From positions 1 through 64,000 of the IMG/VR virus record IMGVR_UViG_3300046474_000239: 64,000 nt of DNA; one strand, written 5' to 3'. Shown piece after piece: positions 6,319 through 17,028 of this stretch. The notes under the pieces are model-generated. The model was not told where the DNA came from. It saw nothing but the letters and a program-made list of their open reading frames with translations, and did no database searches. The DNA comes from a virus. A program made the position numbers and the translations under genes. Position 1 is the first letter of the stretch, and each line of letters starts with the position of its first letter.

Positions 6319-7788
6319 ATGGCAAACGCAAAAGCAAAAGCTAAACCCGCCCAGGCAAAGGAAGAGGCGGCACCGGAATTCGCAGAAGGCTCCTGGGTCC
6401 GCTTCCTCGGCTACGAGAAGGGCACCAAGAAAGAGGAGATGATCCTCAACAAAGACGAATCGTACGAAGTCGTCGCGCTGCCTGGCGAAGAAGAAGTTGA
6501 CGGCGACGTGATCCAAACCGGCTACGTGCTGCGTCTGGAAAACCCGGACTTCGATCCGAAGAAGAAAGAAAACCCGGACACCAACCCTAAGTTCCTGGAA
6601 ACCGAAGTGTTCCCGGAAGAGATCGAAGCGGGCGAAGCGCCGGAAGGCGAAGGCGATGCGATCACCTACGAAGAGCTGGCCGCGTACAGCAAAGCAGAGC
6701 TGCTCGAATTCGCCACGGCGAACGAAGTCAAGCTGACTGCCGCTCAAAAGAAAACCCCGGAAACCTTGCTCGCTACCCTGGCCGCAGAATTCGGCCTGGA
6801 GCCAGCAGCCGAAGAAGAAGAGCCTGAAACTCCTCCGGCCAAGCCTGAAACCGCTGCCGCGAAGAAGAAGCGCGAAGCCCAGGAAGCTGCCGACGCTAAA
6901 GCAGCCAAGGCCAAGCCACCGACCGCAGCCGAGAAGAAGGCCGCAGCAGCCGCCGAAAAACTGGCAGCCGCCCCTAAAGGCAAAGCCACTGCCAAAGGCA
7001 AGGCCCCGGCCGCGCCGAAGGACGAGGAAGAAGAAGTCGACCCAGACTTCGTGCCTGAACTCGAAGGCGAAGACGAAGCGGTCCTCTCCCTGGTCGAAGG
7101 CGACGTTGACCTGGTCGCGGTAGCCCAGGACCTGGAATCGGCGGTTGCCGTATCCGAGTACCAGTTGGGCGGCGTGCTGTACCACATCAAGAAAGAAAAG
7201 CTGCACCTGGCTACCGACAAGAAGGGCAAGCTGCTCGATCCTGAATACGGCGAAACCGGTGGCTTCAAGAAGTTCCTGTTGGATAACTTCAACATCGACT
7301 ACCGCAAGGCCACGTACCTGATCGACATCTACATCAACTTCACCCTGGCCGGTATCGAAAATCCGTCCGACGTGGTTGGCCGTATCGGCTGGACCAAGGC
7401 AAGCAAGATCGCCAAGCTGGTCGGTGTCGAAGGCGCAGACGTTGACGGTCTGGTTGACGTAGCCGAGAAGAACACCGTTGCGGATCTGTCCGAGATCATC
7501 AAGGAGCAGTTCTCTCCTGAAGGCGGCAGCGACAAGCCACCATCGGCTACCCGTATCACTCTGCGCTTCCGCTACCTGGAAGAAGAAGCCAACGTCTTCG
7601 AAGACGCGCTGAAAGAGCTGGCTGACCAGTTCGGCCAGAAGCCTGAAGAAGCGTTGCTCCAGTTGGTCATCGACGCACACGCTCGCGAAGTCTCGGGCGC
7701 TGGCGGCCACAACCAGGAAGAAGAAGAGCAACCGGCCAAGGGCGGCAAAGCAGCAACCAAACCCGCTCGGGGTAAGGCTCGCGCCTAA
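6319..7788 (+). CDS. Large acidic and Ala/Lys-rich protein, probably abundant and DNA-binding
   Basis: Strong codon bias, own terminator, HeH/Rho-N-like segment YSKAELLEFA, AK-rich linker, helical C-terminal domain. Confidence 0.75.
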   Translation: MANAKAKAKPAQAKEEAAPEFAEGSWVRFLGYEKGTKKEEMILNKDESYEVVALPGEEEVDGDVIQTGYVLRLENPDFDPKKKENPDTNPKFLETEVFPEEIEAGEAPEGEGDAITYEELAAYSKAELLEFATANEVKLTAAQKKTPETLLATLAAEFGLEPAAEEEEPETPPAKPETAAAKKKREAQEAADAKAAKAKPPTAAEKKAAAAAEKLAAAPKGKATAKGKAPAAPKDEEEEVDPDFVPELEGEDEAVLSLVEGDVDLVAVAQDLESAVAVSEYQLGGVLYHIKKEKLHLATDKKGKLLDPEYGETGGFKKFLLDNFNIDYRKATYLIDIYINFTLAGIENPSDVVGRIGWTKASKIAKLVGVEGADVDGLVDVAEKNTVADLSEIIKEQFSPEGGSDKPPSATRITLRFRYLEEEANVFEDALKELADQFGQKPEEALLQLVIDAHAREVSGAGGHNQEEEEQPAKGGKAATKPARGKARA

Positions 7789-7853: not shown

Positions 7854-8627
7854 ATGGCAGCTAAGAAAGTTCCGACCCGCGTGCCAACCAGGGTGCCAAC
7901 TCGCGTGCCAACCAAGGCGCCAAGCAAGGCCCGTACGGCGGTAGACACGCGGGCGGCGATACCTCCACCCCTGGACATGTCGAAGATCAAACTCAAGCTG
8001 GAGTATGTCGACATCAACGACATCGTTCCGTACGAGTGGAACGCAAGGGATAACGCCAAGGCAGTCGCGGCGGTCAAGGCCTCGATCAAGACCTTCGGCT
8101 TCATCATCCCTATCGTGATCGACGACGACAATGTCCTGGCCGCTGGACACACCCGTACCGAAGCTGCCAAAGAGCTGGGTATGGCAGAGGTGCCCGCCGT
8201 TCGCGCCAGCCACCTGACCGAAGACCAGATTAAAGCCTTCCGCCTGATCGACAACAAGGTAGCCAGCATCGCCGATTGGGACTTCAACCTCCTGGCCGCA
8301 GAGATGCAGCAGCTCGAAGGTCTGTTCGACATGACGGACTACGGCTGGACTACCCAGGAGATCGACTGCCTCAGCTCGATGGTCGGTGATGACTGCCTGA
8401 CCACCTCCGGCCTGGGCACGGGCGGCCAGCGTGACGCAGAGGATGCAGAGCGTGAGCCAGCCGGTCGACGTGCACCTACCCGTGCCCGCTTCGTGTTGGG
8501 TGAGCTATGCTTCTTCGAAGACGCCAACCTCTACCGCTCCTGGGTACAGGGACTGCGCGAGCTGCACAACTTCGATGAAGAGCTGATCGCTGAAGACCTC
8601 AAGCGCCGCTTGGGCATTTTGGTATAA
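7854..8627 (+). CDS. ParB/sulfiredoxin N-terminal domain protein
   Basis: PYEWNAR.N, SIKTFGF..PIVID, AGHTR..AA (GxxRxxA), FRLIDNK; N-terminal (VPTR)x3. Confidence 0.9.
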   Translation: MAAKKVPTRVPTRVPTRVPTKAPSKARTAVDTRAAIPPPLDMSKIKLKLEYVDINDIVPYEWNARDNAKAVAAVKASIKTFGFIIPIVIDDDNVLAAGHTRTEAAKELGMAEVPAVRASHLTEDQIKAFRLIDNKVASIADWDFNLLAAEMQQLEGLFDMTDYGWTTQEIDCLSSMVGDDCLTTSGLGTGGQRDAEDAEREPAGRRAPTRARFVLGELCFFEDANLYRSWVQGLRELHNFDEELIAEDLKRRLGILV

Positions 8628-8636
8628 GGAGGCCCT

Positions 8637-10193
8637 ATGGCCGTTCAACGAGTGAGACGCCTACGGCACGCCAGGGCGACCGTGGACCTGGAAGCCGACG
8701 TAGTCCAGATGATCGGGGTGGATGACCTGACCCCGGACGGCAAGAACCCACGGAAGGCTGACCAGGCCCGCTCCGCGCTACTACGTCTGTCCCTAGATAA
8801 GCTGGGCTTCCTCATGCCGCTATTCCGTCAAAGGTCTAGCGGCTTGTTGCTGTCTGGGCACCAGCGCCTCACTCAGTCGAAAGGCCTGGGCTTCCCAACC
8901 GTGCCCGTCGTGGACGTGGACGTAGCGGACGACGAGGTGATGAACATCAACTTGCTGTTCAACCGCCTGACCAACGACTTCAATGCCTTCGACACTGGAG
9001 CCACGGCCAAGGGCCGCATGGACATGCAAGGCATCCTGAAGCTGCTGGAGGCCCTGCCGGATCGGGCGGACGATGAGCACCCCGCCAACCACTGCAAGGT
9101 AGAACCTATCCGTCAGTTCGCCAACGGAGTAGCAGACCAGTACGACAAGAAAGCCGCCGTTACCGCTGGCGCGTTCACCCGTATGAATATCCGCATCCCG
9201 CTCGTCGTCAGCGAGTCCGGCCTCGTGGTCAACGGCGTTAACCGGATGTTCTCCGCGCTCGACCGTGGCATTGAGGAATGGCCAGTAGTCAGGATCCCAG
9301 ACAACATCGCAGCGGTTGCGCTCCAGGCGCTCAACTACTTGAGCATGGACTTCCACGTCAGTGAGGATTTCAAGAACCTGTTGCGCTCCTCGGCGTTCCG
9401 TCGCGTGTCGAACAACCGGGGCACAGTGGGCAAGTCCTACCGCTTCTGGGCCAACGGCTGCCGGTCGCTCCTGGACCGCGAGAGTTACACCACTCAATAC
9501 TGGGTGAACTTCCGCGACATCCACGGCACCAACATCCTCGACTTCGGGGGCGGCCTCTGCAAAGTGGCACCGTACCTTCAGACCAAGGGCTTCAACGCCA
9601 TCGACTTCGAGCCGTACCGGGTGGACCCGATCCTCAACGAAGCCGAACCATCCTTGCGCTACAGCCGCGAGCAGGCCAAGAAGTTCCTGGACGCGATCCA
9701 GGACCCCAAGCACCGCTTCGACAGCATCTTCCTTTCGGCGGTTCTGAACTCGGTGCCGTTCCCGGAGGATCGCTTGATGGTCCTGGCAATCGTGCACGCG
9801 CTCTGCTCGAAGGAGACGGTGGTCTACGGGACCTGCCGTGACCTATCCGACTTCGACTACGAGTACGGCGGTGTGCGGAACGGCAACTACTTTGTCTGGG
9901 ATACAGAGCCTGGCGTGCGCCTGGGTGACGTGTCGTCTCGGCCGAAGCTCCAGAAGTTCATGACGCAGGAGGAGGCACGCGGCTACTTCCAGCGTTGGTG
10001 GAAGACCATTGAGTTCTGGCCGGGCGGCAACGTGTTCTACTTCAAGCTGACTAACCCTATGGTCATGAACCAGAAGGCCCTACAGCAGAGCCTGGCTTTC
10101 GAATTTGATTTGCCCTTCGCGGACGGTGGTAGACTCGGTCTGGCCAACGAGGCAATCAAGGCCTTCAGCAAGAGACTGGGCCGCAAACTGTAG
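8637..10193 (+). CDS. Tandem ParB-like domains fused to a class I SAM-dependent methyltransferase-like domain
   Basis: NPRK..LGFLMP..LLSGHQR; second degenerate PLVV..VVNGVNR; ILDFGGG, DFEPY, FDSIFLSAVLNSVP. Confidence 0.8.
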   Translation: MAVQRVRRLRHARATVDLEADVVQMIGVDDLTPDGKNPRKADQARSALLRLSLDKLGFLMPLFRQRSSGLLLSGHQRLTQSKGLGFPTVPVVDVDVADDEVMNINLLFNRLTNDFNAFDTGATAKGRMDMQGILKLLEALPDRADDEHPANHCKVEPIRQFANGVADQYDKKAAVTAGAFTRMNIRIPLVVSESGLVVNGVNRMFSALDRGIEEWPVVRIPDNIAAVALQALNYLSMDFHVSEDFKNLLRSSAFRRVSNNRGTVGKSYRFWANGCRSLLDRESYTTQYWVNFRDIHGTNILDFGGGLCKVAPYLQTKGFNAIDFEPYRVDPILNEAEPSLRYSREQAKKFLDAIQDPKHRFDSIFLSAVLNSVPFPEDRLMVLAIVHALCSKETVVYGTCRDLSDFDYEYGGVRNGNYFVWDTEPGVRLGDVSSRPKLQKFMTQEEARGYFQRWWKTIEFWPGGNVFYFKLTNPMVMNQKALQQSLAFEFDLPFADGGRLGLANEAIKAFSKRLGRKL

Positions 10194-10202
10194 GAGGTCC
10201 CC

Positions 10203-10418
10203 ATGGAAGCGCCACCGACTGTCGAGTACCGAGGAGCCCAAGGGCGGGAGATGCGCGATGACAGCGTAGCCTCAGCCCTGCGGGAAGAAGCCAACAAGCT
10301 GGACCTAATCATCAAGGGACGCACCATCGGTGGCGACGTATGCCTGGACCCTGACGAGGCGCGGGGGTTGTCCAATAAGTTGCGAACATTGGCAGCCCAA
10401 CTCAATTGCAGATCTTGA
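10203..10418 (+). CDS. Small hypothetical protein
   Basis: AGGAGG RBS, fills the gap. Confidence 0.65.
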   Translation: MEAPPTVEYRGAQGREMRDDSVASALREEANKLDLIIKGRTIGGDVCLDPDEARGLSNKLRTLAAQLNCRS

Positions 10419-10444
10419 TGCAATCAATTGCACGGAGAAACGTC

Positions 10445-11176
10445 ATGCTGATCATGGACCACGAAAACGAACGCACCATCCACATACCGAACAACCCGAA
10501 CAAGTTCGTCTTTGATACGGAAGTGGCGGCCATCTTCGACGACATGGCGGAGCGTTCTATCCCCATGTTCCGTGAGGCCCATGCACTGCATGCCCGTTAC
10601 CTGGCTCCATGGATCGCACGAGGCGCGAGCGTCCTGGACATCGGCGCATCACGCGGGGCGTTTCTGGCAGCACTTGATACGGAGTACGGCATCGAGAACT
10701 TGAATGTCCGCGCTACCGATAGCTCCCCCGCCATGGTGGGCTACACGTCCAGTGACTTCCCTTCGGTCGACGTGGAGCAGGTGGACATTACTTCGCGGGG
10801 CTTCATGAACTGCCTGCACACCTACGACGTGATCAACATGACCTACGTCCTCCAGTTCATACCCAAGGCCCAGCAGCGCCTGGTATTGTCCAAGGTATGC
10901 AGCATGATCAAGAAAGGCGGGGCGTTGATCCTCGGACAGAAGAACAAAGACGATTCTCCTATTGGCGCGGCTGTTCATGAGCAGTACATTCAATGGCGTA
11001 TGGCCAACGGATACACTCGTGAGGAGATCGAGGCCAAGACCGCAGCGCTGGCTAACAGCATGTGGCCAATGACCGAGCCGGACCTGGTGGAAGCGCTCAA
11101 GAGCTTCGGCATGACCGAAGTGGCGAGGACCTGCTCCTGGGGACCCTTCAGCAACTTACTCTGCATCAAGAGGTAA
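10445..11176 (+). CDS. CmoA (carboxy-SAM synthase)-like SAM-binding protein, divergent
   Basis: FVFD..VA.IFDDM..RSIP, VLDIGASRG, DSSPAM, VLQF, GGALIL..K, ANGY..EEI..K..L.N.M follow the CmoA pattern recalled from E. coli. Confidence 0.85.
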   Translation: MLIMDHENERTIHIPNNPNKFVFDTEVAAIFDDMAERSIPMFREAHALHARYLAPWIARGASVLDIGASRGAFLAALDTEYGIENLNVRATDSSPAMVGYTSSDFPSVDVEQVDITSRGFMNCLHTYDVINMTYVLQFIPKAQQRLVLSKVCSMIKKGGALILGQKNKDDSPIGAAVHEQYIQWRMANGYTREEIEAKTAALANSMWPMTEPDLVEALKSFGMTEVARTCSWGPFSNLLCIKR

Positions 11177-11181
11177 CACCC

Positions 11182-11952
11182 ATGGCTACCGGCGATAACA
11201 ACGAGCGCCCAGGGCAACGACGCATCGTAGTGCGCCGGACCCGGAACGGGGCACGCTTCACACCACGCGGGCGGATCGACGGAACTCCTCGTGAGATAGA
11301 CGAGGTAGACGACGCTATCGAGCCGGAGCTGCTGGAACGTCACGTCCGCGAGCAGGCCCGTGCTACTCCTGAGGACCGGGATGACACGGGCGGCCCCAAC
11401 CCACGGCAACGGATGCTGGAAGTAGAGCAGGCAGGTAATGCCACCTACGCCAAAGAGTTCCGCCTGGGTCTACTGCAACGCCTCCTCCTGCGTAAGCTCC
11501 CCCTGGACCAGATTGCCCAGCAGCTTGGCGTATCCATCTCGACCATCGAGAAGGACAGGGCGCTGATCAAGAAGCGGATGCGCGAGGCGGCCAAGGAACT
11601 GAACATCGACGAGATGATTGGTGGCCAGACCTTCATGTACGACGAGATCGCTGCGATGGCCATGCGGATCGCCTCGACTACCTCTGGTGAACGTAGCGTG
11701 CCCGTGGCGATGCAGCTCGCAGCCATGCGTACAACACTGGCCAGCCAGGCAGACAAGACCCGCTTCCTACAGTCGGCTGGAGTCTTCGATGTACTGCGCT
11801 TCCGCAAGGCCGACAGCGGCGAAGCAATGTCCGATATTCAGATCCTCATGGAGCGTACTGCGCAGATGTTGTCTGGTCTGGCAGACGATGGCATGGGCGG
11901 CTTCCAGGCTTTCGACCTGAACGAGATCGAACCAGAGAGCGAGGAGCTTTGA
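11182..11952 (+). CDS. Terminase small subunit (HTH)
   Basis: LDQIAQQLGVSISTIEKD HTH; directly upstream of terminase large subunit. Confidence 0.7.
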   Translation: MATGDNNERPGQRRIVVRRTRNGARFTPRGRIDGTPREIDEVDDAIEPELLERHVREQARATPEDRDDTGGPNPRQRMLEVEQAGNATYAKEFRLGLLQRLLLRKLPLDQIAQQLGVSISTIEKDRALIKKRMREAAKELNIDEMIGGQTFMYDEIAAMAMRIASTTSGERSVPVAMQLAAMRTTLASQADKTRFLQSAGVFDVLRFRKADSGEAMSDIQILMERTAQMLSGLADDGMGGFQAFDLNEIEPESEEL

Positions 11953-11953
11953 C

Positions 11954-13879
11954 ATGGCCGCACCACTGAAGATCCCTGCCCGCCGTCAGCAGTATCTGAT
12001 GGAGCAGGTCGACGAGATCGCGAGCGGCCTGGGCAACCAGCAGTTCGGTGAGATGTACAAGGCAGCCGTGGGCAACATGCTTCGGGGTGACGACACCCTG
12101 TTCAAGTTCATGTCTGCCCTGGAGCGTGTGCCGGTCGACATCGAAACCTTCCTGGACGGCGAGGAGTTCCTGGGCGCAACTGACTTGGTGATGTGGCCCG
12201 CCGTACGCCAGGCAGTCATCGACGCCAACAAGAACTGGTGGAGGGGCACCAAGGACCCGGAGAACGGCGCCTACGATACCGTGTGCCTGATGGGCTGCAC
12301 CCGTTCCGGTAAGACGACCCAAGCCATGATCGGCACCGCCTACCACCTGTACATCCTGACCTGCATGAAGAACCCGCAGACCTGGTACGGCCTGCCCTCG
12401 GCTACGTCCATCGTGTTCCCGATCATCGGTGCCAAGCCGCACGTAACGAAGAAGGTGGTCTACGCGCCGCTGCGCAAGCTGATCGAGCGGATGCCGTACT
12501 TCCAGACCACCGGCCTGCCGGACAAGAACATCGACTCGGAAATGTACTTCGTGGAGAAGAACATCCGCGTCGTGCCCGTGGGCGGTAGCGAAGATTCGAT
12601 CCTCGGTGAAGCAACCATCGGCGGCCTGATCGACGAGATCAACTTCATGAACGTGGTGCAGAAGTCGAAGAAGGCTGAAGTGTCCACCGGGCGGAGCGGC
12701 GTGTACGACCAGGCAGCCATGGTGTACGACACATTCACCCGTCGTCGTCGCGGTACGTTCGCCAAGAAGTTCCCGCAGATTGGTTTGATCTATGCCTCGT
12801 CGTCGACCCGGTACAAGGGCGACTTCACTGACAAGCTGAAGGCAGAGACCGAGAAGTACGACCACAAGAACGTCTACATCTTCAACAAGCGCCAGTTCGA
12901 TGTGCAGCCGAAGGAGAACTACTGCGGTGAGACCTTCCGCCTGTTGATCGGTAACGACGTGCAACACGACACCCGCGTGCTGAAGGATGACGAAGAGGTG
13001 GTCGTAGGCGCCTGGGTGGAAGACGTACCTATCGAGTACCTCCAGGACTTCCAGCGTAAGCCATACGACGCGATGCGCGACGTGCTGGGCCTGTCGTCCA
13101 ACGTGATCAGCCCGTTCATCAAGACCCGCTACAAGATCTACGAGTGCGTGGAGTACGGCCAGGAGCTTCAGCTCGAATCGTTCCTGCTGAAGGACCATGT
13201 GATCCTCGGCGTCGACGGCATGCCCCAGGTGCAGTCGAAACACTACTGCATGAACCCATCACGCCCGCGCTACGTTCACATCGACTTGTCGCAAACAGGG
13301 GACCGGTGTGGCATTGCCATGGTGCGTTTCGACGGTATGATTTCAATACGCCGCAACGGGGACATGACAGAGATGCTCCCGCTCGGGGCGGTAGAGATGG
13401 CTTGCTCGATTGAGCCGGACGCAAACAACGAGATCGACATTGCCGAGGTACGAAGTTTCGTACGCAGTCTGATGAAGACCTACGGCTACCCGATCAAGGG
13501 CGTGTCCTACGACGGCTTTGACAGCCGCGAGTCCATCCAGCAGTGGCGCAAGGATCGGATGCCTTCCAAGGTCATCTCGATGGACCGAACCAGCGGACCC
13601 TACAAGCAGTTCCGGGATGCGCTGTACGACCGACGCATTGCGCTCCTTGATGACCCTGACACCGTGAGCGAGATCCTCGACCTGGAGTACGACGAGTCGA
13701 AAGACAAAGTCGACCACACCATGATCGGGCGGAAGGACGTGTCGGATGCCATCTGCGGTGCGTACACCAACATGCTGGAACGTCGCAGCACCTGGGCGAA
13801 CGTGACGGATGATATGACCGATGACAACACTATCGGTCGCCACGATGACGAGCGTAACGACGACGTTCGTCCTACATAG
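11954..13879 (+). CDS. Terminase large subunit
   Basis: Walker A GCTRSGKTT, Walker B GGLIDE, coupling motif ASS, RNase H-like HIDLS...D, SYD, KDVSDA. Confidence 0.9.
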   Translation: MAAPLKIPARRQQYLMEQVDEIASGLGNQQFGEMYKAAVGNMLRGDDTLFKFMSALERVPVDIETFLDGEEFLGATDLVMWPAVRQAVIDANKNWWRGTKDPENGAYDTVCLMGCTRSGKTTQAMIGTAYHLYILTCMKNPQTWYGLPSATSIVFPIIGAKPHVTKKVVYAPLRKLIERMPYFQTTGLPDKNIDSEMYFVEKNIRVVPVGGSEDSILGEATIGGLIDEINFMNVVQKSKKAEVSTGRSGVYDQAAMVYDTFTRRRRGTFAKKFPQIGLIYASSSTRYKGDFTDKLKAETEKYDHKNVYIFNKRQFDVQPKENYCGETFRLLIGNDVQHDTRVLKDDEEVVVGAWVEDVPIEYLQDFQRKPYDAMRDVLGLSSNVISPFIKTRYKIYECVEYGQELQLESFLLKDHVILGVDGMPQVQSKHYCMNPSRPRYVHIDLSQTGDRCGIAMVRFDGMISIRRNGDMTEMLPLGAVEMACSIEPDANNEIDIAEVRSFVRSLMKTYGYPIKGVSYDGFDSRESIQQWRKDRMPSKVISMDRTSGPYKQFRDALYDRRIALLDDPDTVSEILDLEYDESKDKVDHTMIGRKDVSDAICGAYTNMLERRSTWANVTDDMTDDNTIGRHDDERNDDVRPT

Positions 13880-13891
13880 GGGTACAGGGAC

Positions 13892-14188
13892 ATGATGATT
13901 TTCGAGGTGCTGGGCACACTCTGGCTGGTCTTGGTAGGTCTTCGAGCACCTACGCTCACCTGGGAGAGCCGCGTGATGTACAGGCTCTTCAGGACCCGTT
14001 ATACGAAGAAGCAGGCGGCGTATGTAACCGTCCGCTACGTCTGGCTCCCCGGACTGCTCATGGCCCCAGGGATCTTTCTCATTGAAGGCTTCGACACCTT
14101 CAAGCCAGCGCAACTCGAAGACATCAAATCCGCAGCGATCCACCTGGACCGCCTGCTTCAACAACGTGCTCAGCCCGAGGAGCAGTGA
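13892..14188 (+). CDS. Small membrane protein
   Basis: Two hydrophobic segments, operonic position. Confidence 0.55.
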   Translation: MMIFEVLGTLWLVLVGLRAPTLTWESRVMYRLFRTRYTKKQAAYVTVRYVWLPGLLMAPGIFLIEGFDTFKPAQLEDIKSAAIHLDRLLQQRAQPEEQ

Positions 14189-14189
14189 C

Positions 14190-15038
14190 ATGCAACAGTA
14201 CCGCGAGATGGTTTCCTACATCCTTCAAGACGGCGAGGCCCGCCAGTGGCGTAACGGCCACACAGGTATCAGCGTCTTCGATTACCGGATGGAGTTCGAC
14301 TTGCGCAAAGGCTTCCCGTTGCTGGGGCTCAAGTTCGTACCCTTCATGGGTCAATGCCTCGGCGAGTTGCTTGGCTTCCTGCGTGGCTACACCAGCGCTG
14401 CGGACTTCCGCAAACTGGGCTGCACCATCTGGGACCTGAACGCCAACAACGAACCGGCCTGGCTCGACAACCCTGCCCGCCGTGGGCACGATGACCTCGG
14501 GCGGATCTACGGTGCACAGTGGCGGGACATCCGCGTCGAGGACGGCGGCAGCTACGCGGTCAAGGACCAGATGTGGGAACTCCTCAACGGTCTGCGCAAC
14601 GACCCACACGGGCGGCGTCACGTAGTCAGCGCATGGAACCCCGGCGAGCTGCATCTCATGGCCCTGCCTCCTTGCCACATGTTCTTCCAATGCTACGTGA
14701 GCAACGACGGACACCTGGACCTGAAGATGTACCAGCGCAGCGCCGACACCTTCCTGGGCGTGCCCTTCAACATCGCCAGCTATGCAGCCCTGATGATCGT
14801 CATCGGCAAGCTGACCGGCCTCACGCCCCGTCGCCTGATCATGGACTTCGGCGATGCTCACCTGTACTCCGACCACCTGGAGAAGGCGACCATCATGATG
14901 TCCCGTCCTTCGCTGCGCTTGCCGGAGCTGGAAGCGGACATCGGCCCGAGCCAGTCTCTGGAGTCGATTGAACCGGACCAGTTCAACTTGGTAGGGTATG
15001 AGTCACACCCAGCCATCAAAGCGAGCATGGCCGTATGA
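14190..15038 (+). CDS. thyA: Thymidylate synthase
   Basis: GRIYGAQWR, GRRH..SAWNP, LPPCH, YQRSAD.FLGVPFNIASY, DAHLY. Confidence 0.96.
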   Translation: MQQYREMVSYILQDGEARQWRNGHTGISVFDYRMEFDLRKGFPLLGLKFVPFMGQCLGELLGFLRGYTSAADFRKLGCTIWDLNANNEPAWLDNPARRGHDDLGRIYGAQWRDIRVEDGGSYAVKDQMWELLNGLRNDPHGRRHVVSAWNPGELHLMALPPCHMFFQCYVSNDGHLDLKMYQRSADTFLGVPFNIASYAALMIVIGKLTGLTPRRLIMDFGDAHLYSDHLEKATIMMSRPSLRLPELEADIGPSQSLESIEPDQFNLVGYESHPAIKASMAV

Positions 15039-16465: not shown

Positions 16466-16497
16466 TTTACGTGCAATCAATTGCACCGGAGAAAAAC

Positions 16498-17028
16498 ATG
16501 CTGCTTTCCTACCTTGAACTCTGTGAGTTAATCGAACAAGGCGTTATCAAAGGCGTCGAGGAACACGAGGTCCAGGCCGCCAGTATCGACCTGAAGCTGG
16601 GCACAGGGTTCAAGGTGGAGGCGAGCAACGTCTCTTCCCATATCGTAGACCTCAGTGAACGTCAATCTATCGCTTTCTATGAGGTCCAGGAGAGGGTCAT
16701 TCTGGCTCCCCAGGAGTTCGTACTGGCACACACCGAAGCGACGTTTGATTTGCCACTAGACATCTCAGCAGCCTTCTGCCTAAAGTCTTCCATGGCTCGC
16801 AACGGCCTGGAGCATTTGAATGCTTGCTGGGCCGATGCCGGGTGGAACGGATCAACCCTGACCATGGAGTTAAAAAACATGACGCGGTTCCACACGCTCA
16901 TGCTTCAGGCAGGCATGTACATCGGTCAGATGAAGTTTTTCCGGCACACAGCGGTGCCCGAGGAGTTCAGCTACCGTGTGAGAGGACGGTACAACGGTGA
17001 TGCGTCCGTTAGTGCTATCAAGCCGTAA
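16498..17028 (+). CDS. dcd: dCTP deaminase
   Basis: ASIDLKLG, FVLAHT, KSSMAR.G, DAGW.G.LT.E, IGQM.F, Y.GRY. Confidence 0.9.
   Translation: MLLSYLELCELIEQGVIKGVEEHEVQAASIDLKLGTGFKVEASNVSSHIVDLSERQSIAFYEVQERVILAPQEFVLAHTEATFDLPLDISAAFCLKSSMARNGLEHLNACWADAGWNGSTLTMELKNMTRFHTLMLQAGMYIGQMKFFRHTAVPEEFSYRVRGRYNGDASVSAIKP

Follow-up and report, generated by a model that had tools for sequence, protein, structure and literature searches.

Gene content of the locus

The window, i.e., the whole stretch of 64,000 nucleotides analysed here, makes up the initial 64 kb of a virus record that is 104,448 bp long and bears direct terminal repeats, and nearly all of its genes are carried on the + strand. Among cultured phages, its closest relatives are SM1, PaMx31, and PA_L9, Samunavirus phages of Pseudomonas aeruginosa with genomes of ~93 kb. 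The gene under study encodes a CmoA-like SAM-binding enzyme. It is preceded by genes for a stand-alone ParB-N-domain protein and a ParB-ParB-methyltransferase fusion (here referred to as ParBMT), and followed by the genes for the putative small (TerS) and the large (TerL) terminase subunits (Table 1). Its reading frame runs from the ATG at 10445 to a stop codon at 11174-11176, and the start methionine is common to 91% of the subfamily homologues. The small ORF between ParBMT and the CmoA-like gene is present in the closest relatives only (L004-L007) and gave no family match.

Table 1. Features of the CmoA-like locus and the codons of selected residues (positions are those of the window).
Feature	Position	Strand	Details
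ParB-N-domain protein, stand-alone	7854..8627	+	257 aa; position kept in related loci
ParBMT (ParB-ParB-methyltransferase fusion)	8637..10193	+	518 aa; PHROG 5475 (no function assigned)
Small ORF between ParBMT and CmoA-like gene	10203..10418	+	71 aa
GGAG ribosome-binding site	10434..10437	+	7 nt 5' of ATG 10445
CmoA-like SAM-binding enzyme	10445..11176	+	243 aa; non-Arg199 phage subfamily, PHROG 4752
His13 of CmoA-like protein	10481-10483	+	
Phe42 of CmoA-like protein	10568-10570	+	CmoA column Tyr39
His46 of CmoA-like protein	10580-10582	+	
Thr133 of CmoA-like protein	10841-10843	+	CmoA column Asn132
Val135 of CmoA-like protein	10847-10849	+	CmoA column Thr134
Gln144 of CmoA-like protein	10874-10876	+	CmoA column Arg143
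Gln165 of CmoA-like protein	10937-10939	+	CmoA column Glu164
Thr199 of CmoA-like protein	11039-11041	+	CmoA column 199
Ala203 of CmoA-like protein	11051-11053	+	
Putative small terminase subunit (TerS)	11182..11952	+	weak HTH matches; conserved directly 3' of CmoA-like gene
Large terminase subunit (TerL)	11954..13879	+	641 aa

Several other features of the window were recorded. A 489-aa protein at 6319-7788, which belongs to PHROG 17202 (no function assigned) and has no Pfam match, keeps its place directly 5' of ParB across nearly all related loci, and may be part of the same module as ParB, ParBMT, and the CmoA-like gene. The stretches 14082-15038 and 16471-17028 hold a thymidylate-synthase homologue (PF00303, E 1e-82) just 3' of the terminase, with a 37-residue N-terminal extension, and then a DNA ligase and a dCTP deaminase; the homologue may be either a genuine dTMP synthase or a pyrimidine hydroxymethylase. 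Between 36000 and 44000, the G+C content is ~0.53, compared with ~0.59 elsewhere, and short ORFs are numerous.

Family assignment and predicted fold

With Pfam, the CmoA-like protein matches generic class I methyltransferase domains only, while the best NCBIfam model is the CmoA equivalog TIGR00740 (E 1e-29). The protein scores below the cut-offs of both CmoA equivalogs, TIGR00740 and PRK15451 (104 vs. 193.3 bits and 64.6 vs. 285, respectively), and it likewise stayed below the CmoA cut-off in a whole-genome NCBIfam scan. PHROG 4752, which carries the label 'tRNA methyltransferase', is matched with an E-value of 1.5e-48. Among PDB sequences, the top phmmer match is E. coli CmoA (4gek, E 7.7e-19; also 4iwn), followed by H. 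influenzae YecO (1im8).

An AlphaFold2 model derived from 40 subfamily sequences reached a mean pLDDT of 95.8 and a pTM of 0.92. Its best Foldseek match is again 4gek (TM 0.80-0.85), and VIA-align superposed 221 residues of the model on E. coli CmoA with an rmsd of 2.4 A (Z 26.9). The protein is predicted to adopt the CmoA fold with lid helices over the cofactor, a lid that has been described by Byrne et al. 2013 (PMC3663124). The SAM contacts Asp62, Gly64, Ser66, Asp89, Asp117, and Phe137 of CmoA are kept as Asp65, Gly67, Ser69, Asp92, Asp114, and Phe138. Sequence and structure thus both point to CmoA as the closest family; the window protein falls outside the CmoA equivalog by score and by clamp (see below), yet in function it would be most like CmoA.

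A preliminary description of this DNA, made from the sequence alone, had proposed altered chemistry rather than decay. That the gene is intact and not decaying is now well supported by Nei-Gojobori dN/dS values of 0.05, 0.12, 0.17, and 0.17 for four relatives, by the confident prediction of a CmoA-like fold, and by the fixation of the key substitution throughout a large, diverged subfamily with a signature of its own.

Residues at the carboxylate clamp

In E. coli CmoA, Arg199 binds the carboxylate of carboxy-SAM, as the preliminary description had stated, through a 2.7 A salt bridge, and the methionine part is held by hydrogen bonds from Tyr39 and Asn132 (Byrne et al. 2013, PMC3663124). The pocket and prephenate-contact residues considered here were sourced from the same paper plus a review, and the E. 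coli K-12 cmoA product used for the MAFFT alignments was taken from NC_000913.3. The phmmer alignments to PDB sequences pair SIPMF with SVPGY, MTYVLQF with LNFTLQF, and AKT with QKR in a region without gaps. The HMMER and MAFFT alignments agree, with no gap around column 199, that Tyr39 is replaced by Phe, Asn132 by Thr, and Arg199 by Thr, exactly as had been read by eye. Further changes relative to CmoA are Glu203 to Ala, Thr134 to Val, Arg143 to Gln, and Glu164 to Gln.

A multiple alignment with CmoA and phage homologues, which the preliminary description had named among its checks, places Ala at columns 200 and 203 in the window protein and its nearest kin, and the protein therefore has no relocated arginine of the kind found in some phage relatives. 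In the AlphaFold2 model, Thr199 is placed within helix 192-202, on which Lys198, a residue that does not vary throughout the family, is the sole basic residue near the clamp column. His46, His13, and Lys198 are candidates for a structural compensation of the lost clamp. The clamp region of the window protein is thus Thr199, Ala200, and Ala203, with no guanidinium group at column 199 or 203, and Val135, Gln144, and Gln165 stand where CmoA has Thr134, Arg143, and Glu164.

A diverged phage-only subfamily without Arg199

When 1.84 billion 50%-identity representatives were searched with phmmer, 1588 relatives were obtained at E <= 1e-3, and residues at column 199 were counted in the best 146 alignable of these cluster representatives. 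Column 199 is non-basic in 107 of the 146 (79 Thr, 14 Ser, 7 Asn, 5 Ala, 1 Gln, and 1 His) and Arg or Lys in 38. The two sets differ at several other positions. His13 occurs in 99/107 members of the non-basic set vs. 0/38 of the Arg/Lys set, His46 in 87/107 vs. 4/38, and Trp207 in 75/107 vs. 0/38. Conversely, Thr134 is kept in 23/107 vs. 29/38, Arg143 in 56/107 vs. 37/38, Glu164 in 23/107 vs. 37/38, and Glu203 in 8/107 vs. 30/38. A Lys or Arg at column 200 or 203 is present in 75 of 93 non-basic rows, and which of the two positions holds it varies. Ten residues, namely, Arg34, Ser35, Pro37, Gln136, Phe137, Lys165, Tyr181, Gly189, Tyr190, and Lys198, are 97-100% conserved in both sets; these CmoA-specific lid and pocket residues are thus retained despite an overall identity of ~25%.

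In an IQ-TREE phylogeny of 160 rows, a branch with SH-aLRT support of 98-99 splits 85 rows from 75 mostly Arg/Lys rows, and none of the 85 rows on the window's side has Arg or Lys at column 199. These 85 rows consist of a 74-row clade (support 99) that includes the window protein and an 11-row clade that includes the homologue of Aeromonas phage HJ05. With rows labelled by the presence of Thr/Ser, column 199 changes state 11 times on the 160-row tree, compared with a mean of 53.7 after shuffling; since none of 500 label shuffles gave a value as low, the pattern at column 199 is not due to chance. The loss of Arg199 is therefore a trait of a large, deeply diverged, phage-only branch with its own co-varying signature. 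The window protein carries this signature (His13, His46, Thr/Ser199, Met206, and Trp207), together with the adjacency to ParBMT 5' of the terminase.

The ParBMT partner and conservation of the cassette

ParBMT combines two ParB-N-type domains with a divergent class I SAM-methyltransferase domain (motifs DFGGG, FEPY, NSVPF, and PKxQK). In a fold search with this protein, all matches were generic class I enzymes or ParB/Noc domains, and no relative among the DNA methyltransferases was found; its methyltransferase domain resembles small-molecule methyltransferases and not the known DNA methyltransferases. Literature searches for ParBMT and for DNA modification in Samunavirus phages found nothing.

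The subfamily profile retrieved 56 viral loci. Every non-Arg locus among them whose flanks are long enough encodes ParB, ParBMT, the CmoA-like protein, TerS, and TerL, in this order, and the order is kept even where the CmoA-like proteins share only 27-33% identity. Four Arg199 loci of this sample (L054-L056 and L059) also encode a ParBMT homologue (~30% identity), and a further search brought the Arg/Lys-type ParBMT loci to 31 in total, in which all CmoA-like ORFs found have Arg or Lys at column 199. The remaining Arg199 phage loci all contain a CmoX-like C5-methyltransferase, and some also a CmoY-like ligase, so that the partners of Arg199-type phage genes split cleanly between ParBMT and CmoX. 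A CmoA homologue with a CmoX-like C5-methyltransferase is likewise found in the cultured phages PaBG, S-B05, Y3, and an SPbeta-like phage, and ParBMT never occurs without a CmoA homologue in the cultured-phage collection (14/14 records). Taken together, the non-Arg loci, the Arg/Lys-type ParBMT loci, and the CmoX loci indicate that phage CmoA-family genes are always accompanied by a transferase of the methyltransferase fold. The CmoA-CmoX pairing is a proven architecture (PMC12783734).

The ParBMT partners of Arg-type and Thr-type CmoA homologues form two separate lineages that share all invariant basic residues. The differences between the groups cluster at residues 400-430, where basic residues have been both gained and lost. 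This segment corresponds to the loop after the fifth strand of the methyltransferase domain, with, e.g., Cys400/Arg401 in the partners of Thr-type proteins vs. Lys/Asp in those of Arg-type proteins.

The Arg199-type cassettes were also seen to contain additional small genes between ParBMT and CmoA (L054:1566-2693, L056:1858-2985, and L059:7191-7955), i.e., either ORFs of 118 aa, 162 aa, and 90 aa, the last Cys-rich and possibly ferredoxin-like, or a single ORF of 254 aa. In Gordonia phage Evaa (L096:1-5649), the genome starts with ParB, ParBMT, a phosphatase on the opposite strand, the CmoA homologue, and the terminase; as a cultured actinophage, Evaa would be a convenient experimental comparator.

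Phage relatives with a relocated arginine

SpCmoA of Synechococcus phage S-B43 has been shown experimentally to be a carboxy-SAM synthase, with a kcat of 2.33 per s, which is 10-fold that of the E. coli enzyme (PMC12783734). The CmoA homologue of Synechococcus phage S-B05 (L090:4022-4717) is 100% identical to the S-B43 protein (MN018232.1 147082-147774). In the alignment, columns 132, 199, and 203 of SpCmoA are occupied by Leu, Glu, and Arg, respectively, and Tyr39, Thr134, Arg143, and Glu164 are kept. Its Glu199/Arg203 is a swap of the canonical Arg199/Glu203 pair, a point of which the sections of PMC12783734 consulted make no mention. The homologue of a Staphylococcus SPbeta-like phage has Ser199 and Arg203, and that of Gordonia phage Evaa has Ala199, Arg200, and Arg203. 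Carboxy-SAM synthesis can do without Asn132 and without an Arg at precisely column 199; the latter is dispensable because the arginine can sit one helix turn further on, as Arg203 does in SpCmoA.

These relatives put the earlier claims in perspective. The statement that the window protein lacks the residues defining carboxy-SAM synthesis is only partly borne out. The protein does lack Arg199 as well as a relocated Arg200/203, and also Thr134, Arg143, and Glu164, which are conserved in Arg-type enzymes. The statement goes too far for Asn132 and the column-199 Arg, which are absent from the proven synthase SpCmoA, and for Tyr39, since Tyr is kept at this column in 82% of the subfamily and Phe42 is only a local variant. 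As to altered chemistry, SpCmoA dispenses with Asn132 and Arg199, yet the window protein has no relocated arginine at all, so that a change in chemistry is plausible from the residues observed; at the same time, carboxy-SAM synthesis remains a candidate, with the family lid and pocket residues 97-100% kept.

Pathway partners sought in the phage genome

Searches of the phage genome gave no TIGR00452 match for CmoB, and the 104-kb genome contains no tRNA genes; the phage therefore has neither a tRNA substrate nor a CmoB of its own. On these grounds, a role in phage tRNA modification, and with it membership in the CmoA-CmoB tRNA cmo5U pathway, was rejected. For CmoX and CmoY, no PF00145 or PF00733 match was found in the window's genome, nor was there a tblastn match with the CmoX and CmoY proteins of S-B05 or PaBG. 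With no adjacent CmoX and no AsnB-type ligase, the locus was not assigned to the CmoA-CmoX(-CmoY) DNA carboxymethylation systems. A search for a phage-encoded chorismate mutase in the same genome found none. Assignment to the CysG/BelI-type metal-dependent O-methyltransferases was rejected as well because their His-His-Asp motif is absent.

Proposed function and alternative explanations

The CmoA-like protein is most likely a functional, SAM-binding enzyme from a branch that is confined to phages and is sister to the carboxy-SAM synthase CmoA. It retains the predicted CmoA fold, the closed lid, and the family pocket, while the spot that holds the carboxymethyl group is remodelled (Arg199 to Thr, its usual partner Glu203 to Ala, Thr134 to Val, and the new conserved His13 and His46). 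Because the retained lid and pocket are combined with a ParBMT pairing that copies the CmoA-CmoX logic, it is read here, on balance and with some reserve, as the enzyme that makes the cofactor for ParBMT, in a pair that would act on phage DNA near packaging. Inside its closed pocket, the enzyme would turn SAM into a modified SAM; ParBMT would load on DNA via its ParB domains and move the SAM-derived group onto phage DNA around the time of packaging. Given the pairing with ParBMT, the CmoA-like protein is probably the source of a modified SAM with which phage DNA is marked, and the use of this product by ParBMT and DNA as its target are likewise probable. The retention of lid and pocket argues, by analogy with CmoA, for a small-molecule reaction on bound SAM.

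As to the product, carboxy-SAM held without an Arg clamp is a tentative candidate, favoured by the conserved pocket, by the movable clamp of SpCmoA, and by the ParBMT invariant residues, which are the same in both cassette types. A different, probably uncharged, SAM adduct is a more doubtful candidate, suggested by the joint loss of Arg199, Glu203, Thr134, Arg143, and Glu164 and the gain of two conserved histidines. In a more speculative version, which is rather unlikely, the non-Arg199 branch would make an undescribed uncharged SAM adduct by CmoA-type sulfonium-ylide chemistry, and ParBMT would put it on the DNA of Pseudomonas- and Aeromonas-type phages.

Several observations run against the reading as a cofactor-making partner. 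The protein scores below the NCBIfam cut-offs, and Arg199, Thr134, Arg143, and Glu164, which are kept in 29-38 of the 38 Arg-type representatives, are lost or relaxed. The ParBMT domain is unlike known DNA methyltransferases, and its shared basic residues, which give no sign of a changed cofactor, would also fit the use of plain SAM. In addition, the predicted structure is almost as close to CysG and BelI (Z ~25) as to CmoA. Both have the same lid and are genuine carboxyl O-methyltransferases of small molecules, and they lend weight to the view that the window protein is a SAM-dependent methyltransferase of the ordinary kind, whose substrate would be a small molecule in a closed pocket (e.g., a metabolite or nucleotide), with a CmoA ancestry that is historical only. 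The missing carboxylate clamp, the absence of several residues conserved in Arg-type proteins, and the purely generic Pfam matches would agree with this, and His13 and His46 could be general bases. It is nevertheless judged unlikely: conservation of 97-100% in the lid and pocket at ~25% identity would be unexpected had the second substrate changed, and argues against an ordinary unrelated methyltransferase; the CysG/BelI metal motif is missing; and the strict pairing with ParBMT, which is common to Arg-type CmoA homologues, would be left unexplained.

The protein might instead bind or consume SAM without feeding ParBMT, either by depleting or sequestering SAM or prephenate against host defences or by regulating ParBMT. 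SAM depletion was raised as a possibility for phage CmoA by the authors of PMC12783734; the loss of a product clamp could fit a futile or lyase-like turnover, and there is no downstream amide ligase (CmoY). This explanation is improbable, however, as anti-defence removal of SAM would be expected early in infection and not from a packaging operon, lyase chemistry is speculative, and the obligate adjacency to a transferase with SAM motifs in three diverged lineages suggests a shared pathway. Decay or inactivity of the gene, as a relic of a captured cmoA, would accord with a score under the family cut-off and with the loss of a residue seen as key in E. coli CmoA, but is highly improbable in view of the low dN/dS values (0.05-0.17), the intact frame with a good ribosome-binding site, the high pLDDT, and the non-basic column 199 of 107/146 representatives, which is accompanied by a conserved alternative signature.

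Significance

Natural variants of SAM are very few, and carboxy-SAM is among them; its role as the donor for a phage DNA modification was established in 2025. The subfamily described here is a phage-only synthase branch that has discarded the clamp Arg and co-varying pocket residues, yet is under strong selection and paired with ParBMT. If the Arg proves dispensable for carboxy-SAM synthesis, the annotation of family members would change, and SpCmoA with Glu199/Arg203 is already a case of a shifted arginine. The other outcome, if true, would be a new SAM-derived cofactor and a new DNA mark. Since cultured phages carry the module, namely, Pseudomonas phages SM1, PaMx31, and PA_L9, Aeromonas phage HJ05, and, as an Arg-bearing comparator, Gordonia phage Evaa, the question is directly testable. 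It is also relevant to how therapy-relevant Pseudomonas phages may evade restriction.

Comparison with known systems

The carboxyl O-methyltransferases CysG and BelI (9FCL, 9FCE) resemble the window protein almost as closely as CmoA does in predicted fold and closed small-molecule pocket (Z ~25, rmsd 2.2-2.5), whereas the identity is 16-17% and their His-His-Asp metal site and Arg22 are absent from the window protein. CmoA (4GEK/4IWN; YecO 1IM8) has in common with it the Rossmann core, the alpha2/alpha6/alpha7 lid, the SAM contacts, and the family-specific residues, and differs in that the window protein has an added N-terminal hairpin with conserved His13 and Pro15, as well as His46, Met206, and Trp207.

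The cassettes that combine an Arg/Lys199 CmoA with ParBMT (uncultured phages L054-L088 and Gordonia phage Evaa) show the same pair in the same pre-terminase position as the window, and their ParBMT proteins have active-site motifs in common with the window's ParBMT at ~30% identity. However, the CmoA homologues of L054-L088 have Arg/Lys199 (Evaa with the displaced arginines given above), while the window protein has Thr199, and on the tree the homologues from these cassettes cluster with the CmoX-linked phage CmoAs, outside the window's clade.

In the SpCmoA-CmoX-CmoY system of S-B43, a phage CmoA homologue is likewise found beside a methyltransferase-fold transferase and a ParB-domain protein, and SpCmoA, like the window protein, has no Arg at column 199 and no Asn at column 132. 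According to PMC12783734, the DNA marks made by this system are 5-carboxymethylcytosine and its glycine amide. The two proteins differ in that SpCmoA keeps Thr134, Arg143, and Glu164 and has Arg203, whereas the window protein has Ala200 and Ala203, and in that the partner of SpCmoA is the C5-cytosine methyltransferase CmoX, whereas that of the window protein is ParBMT, without an amide ligase.
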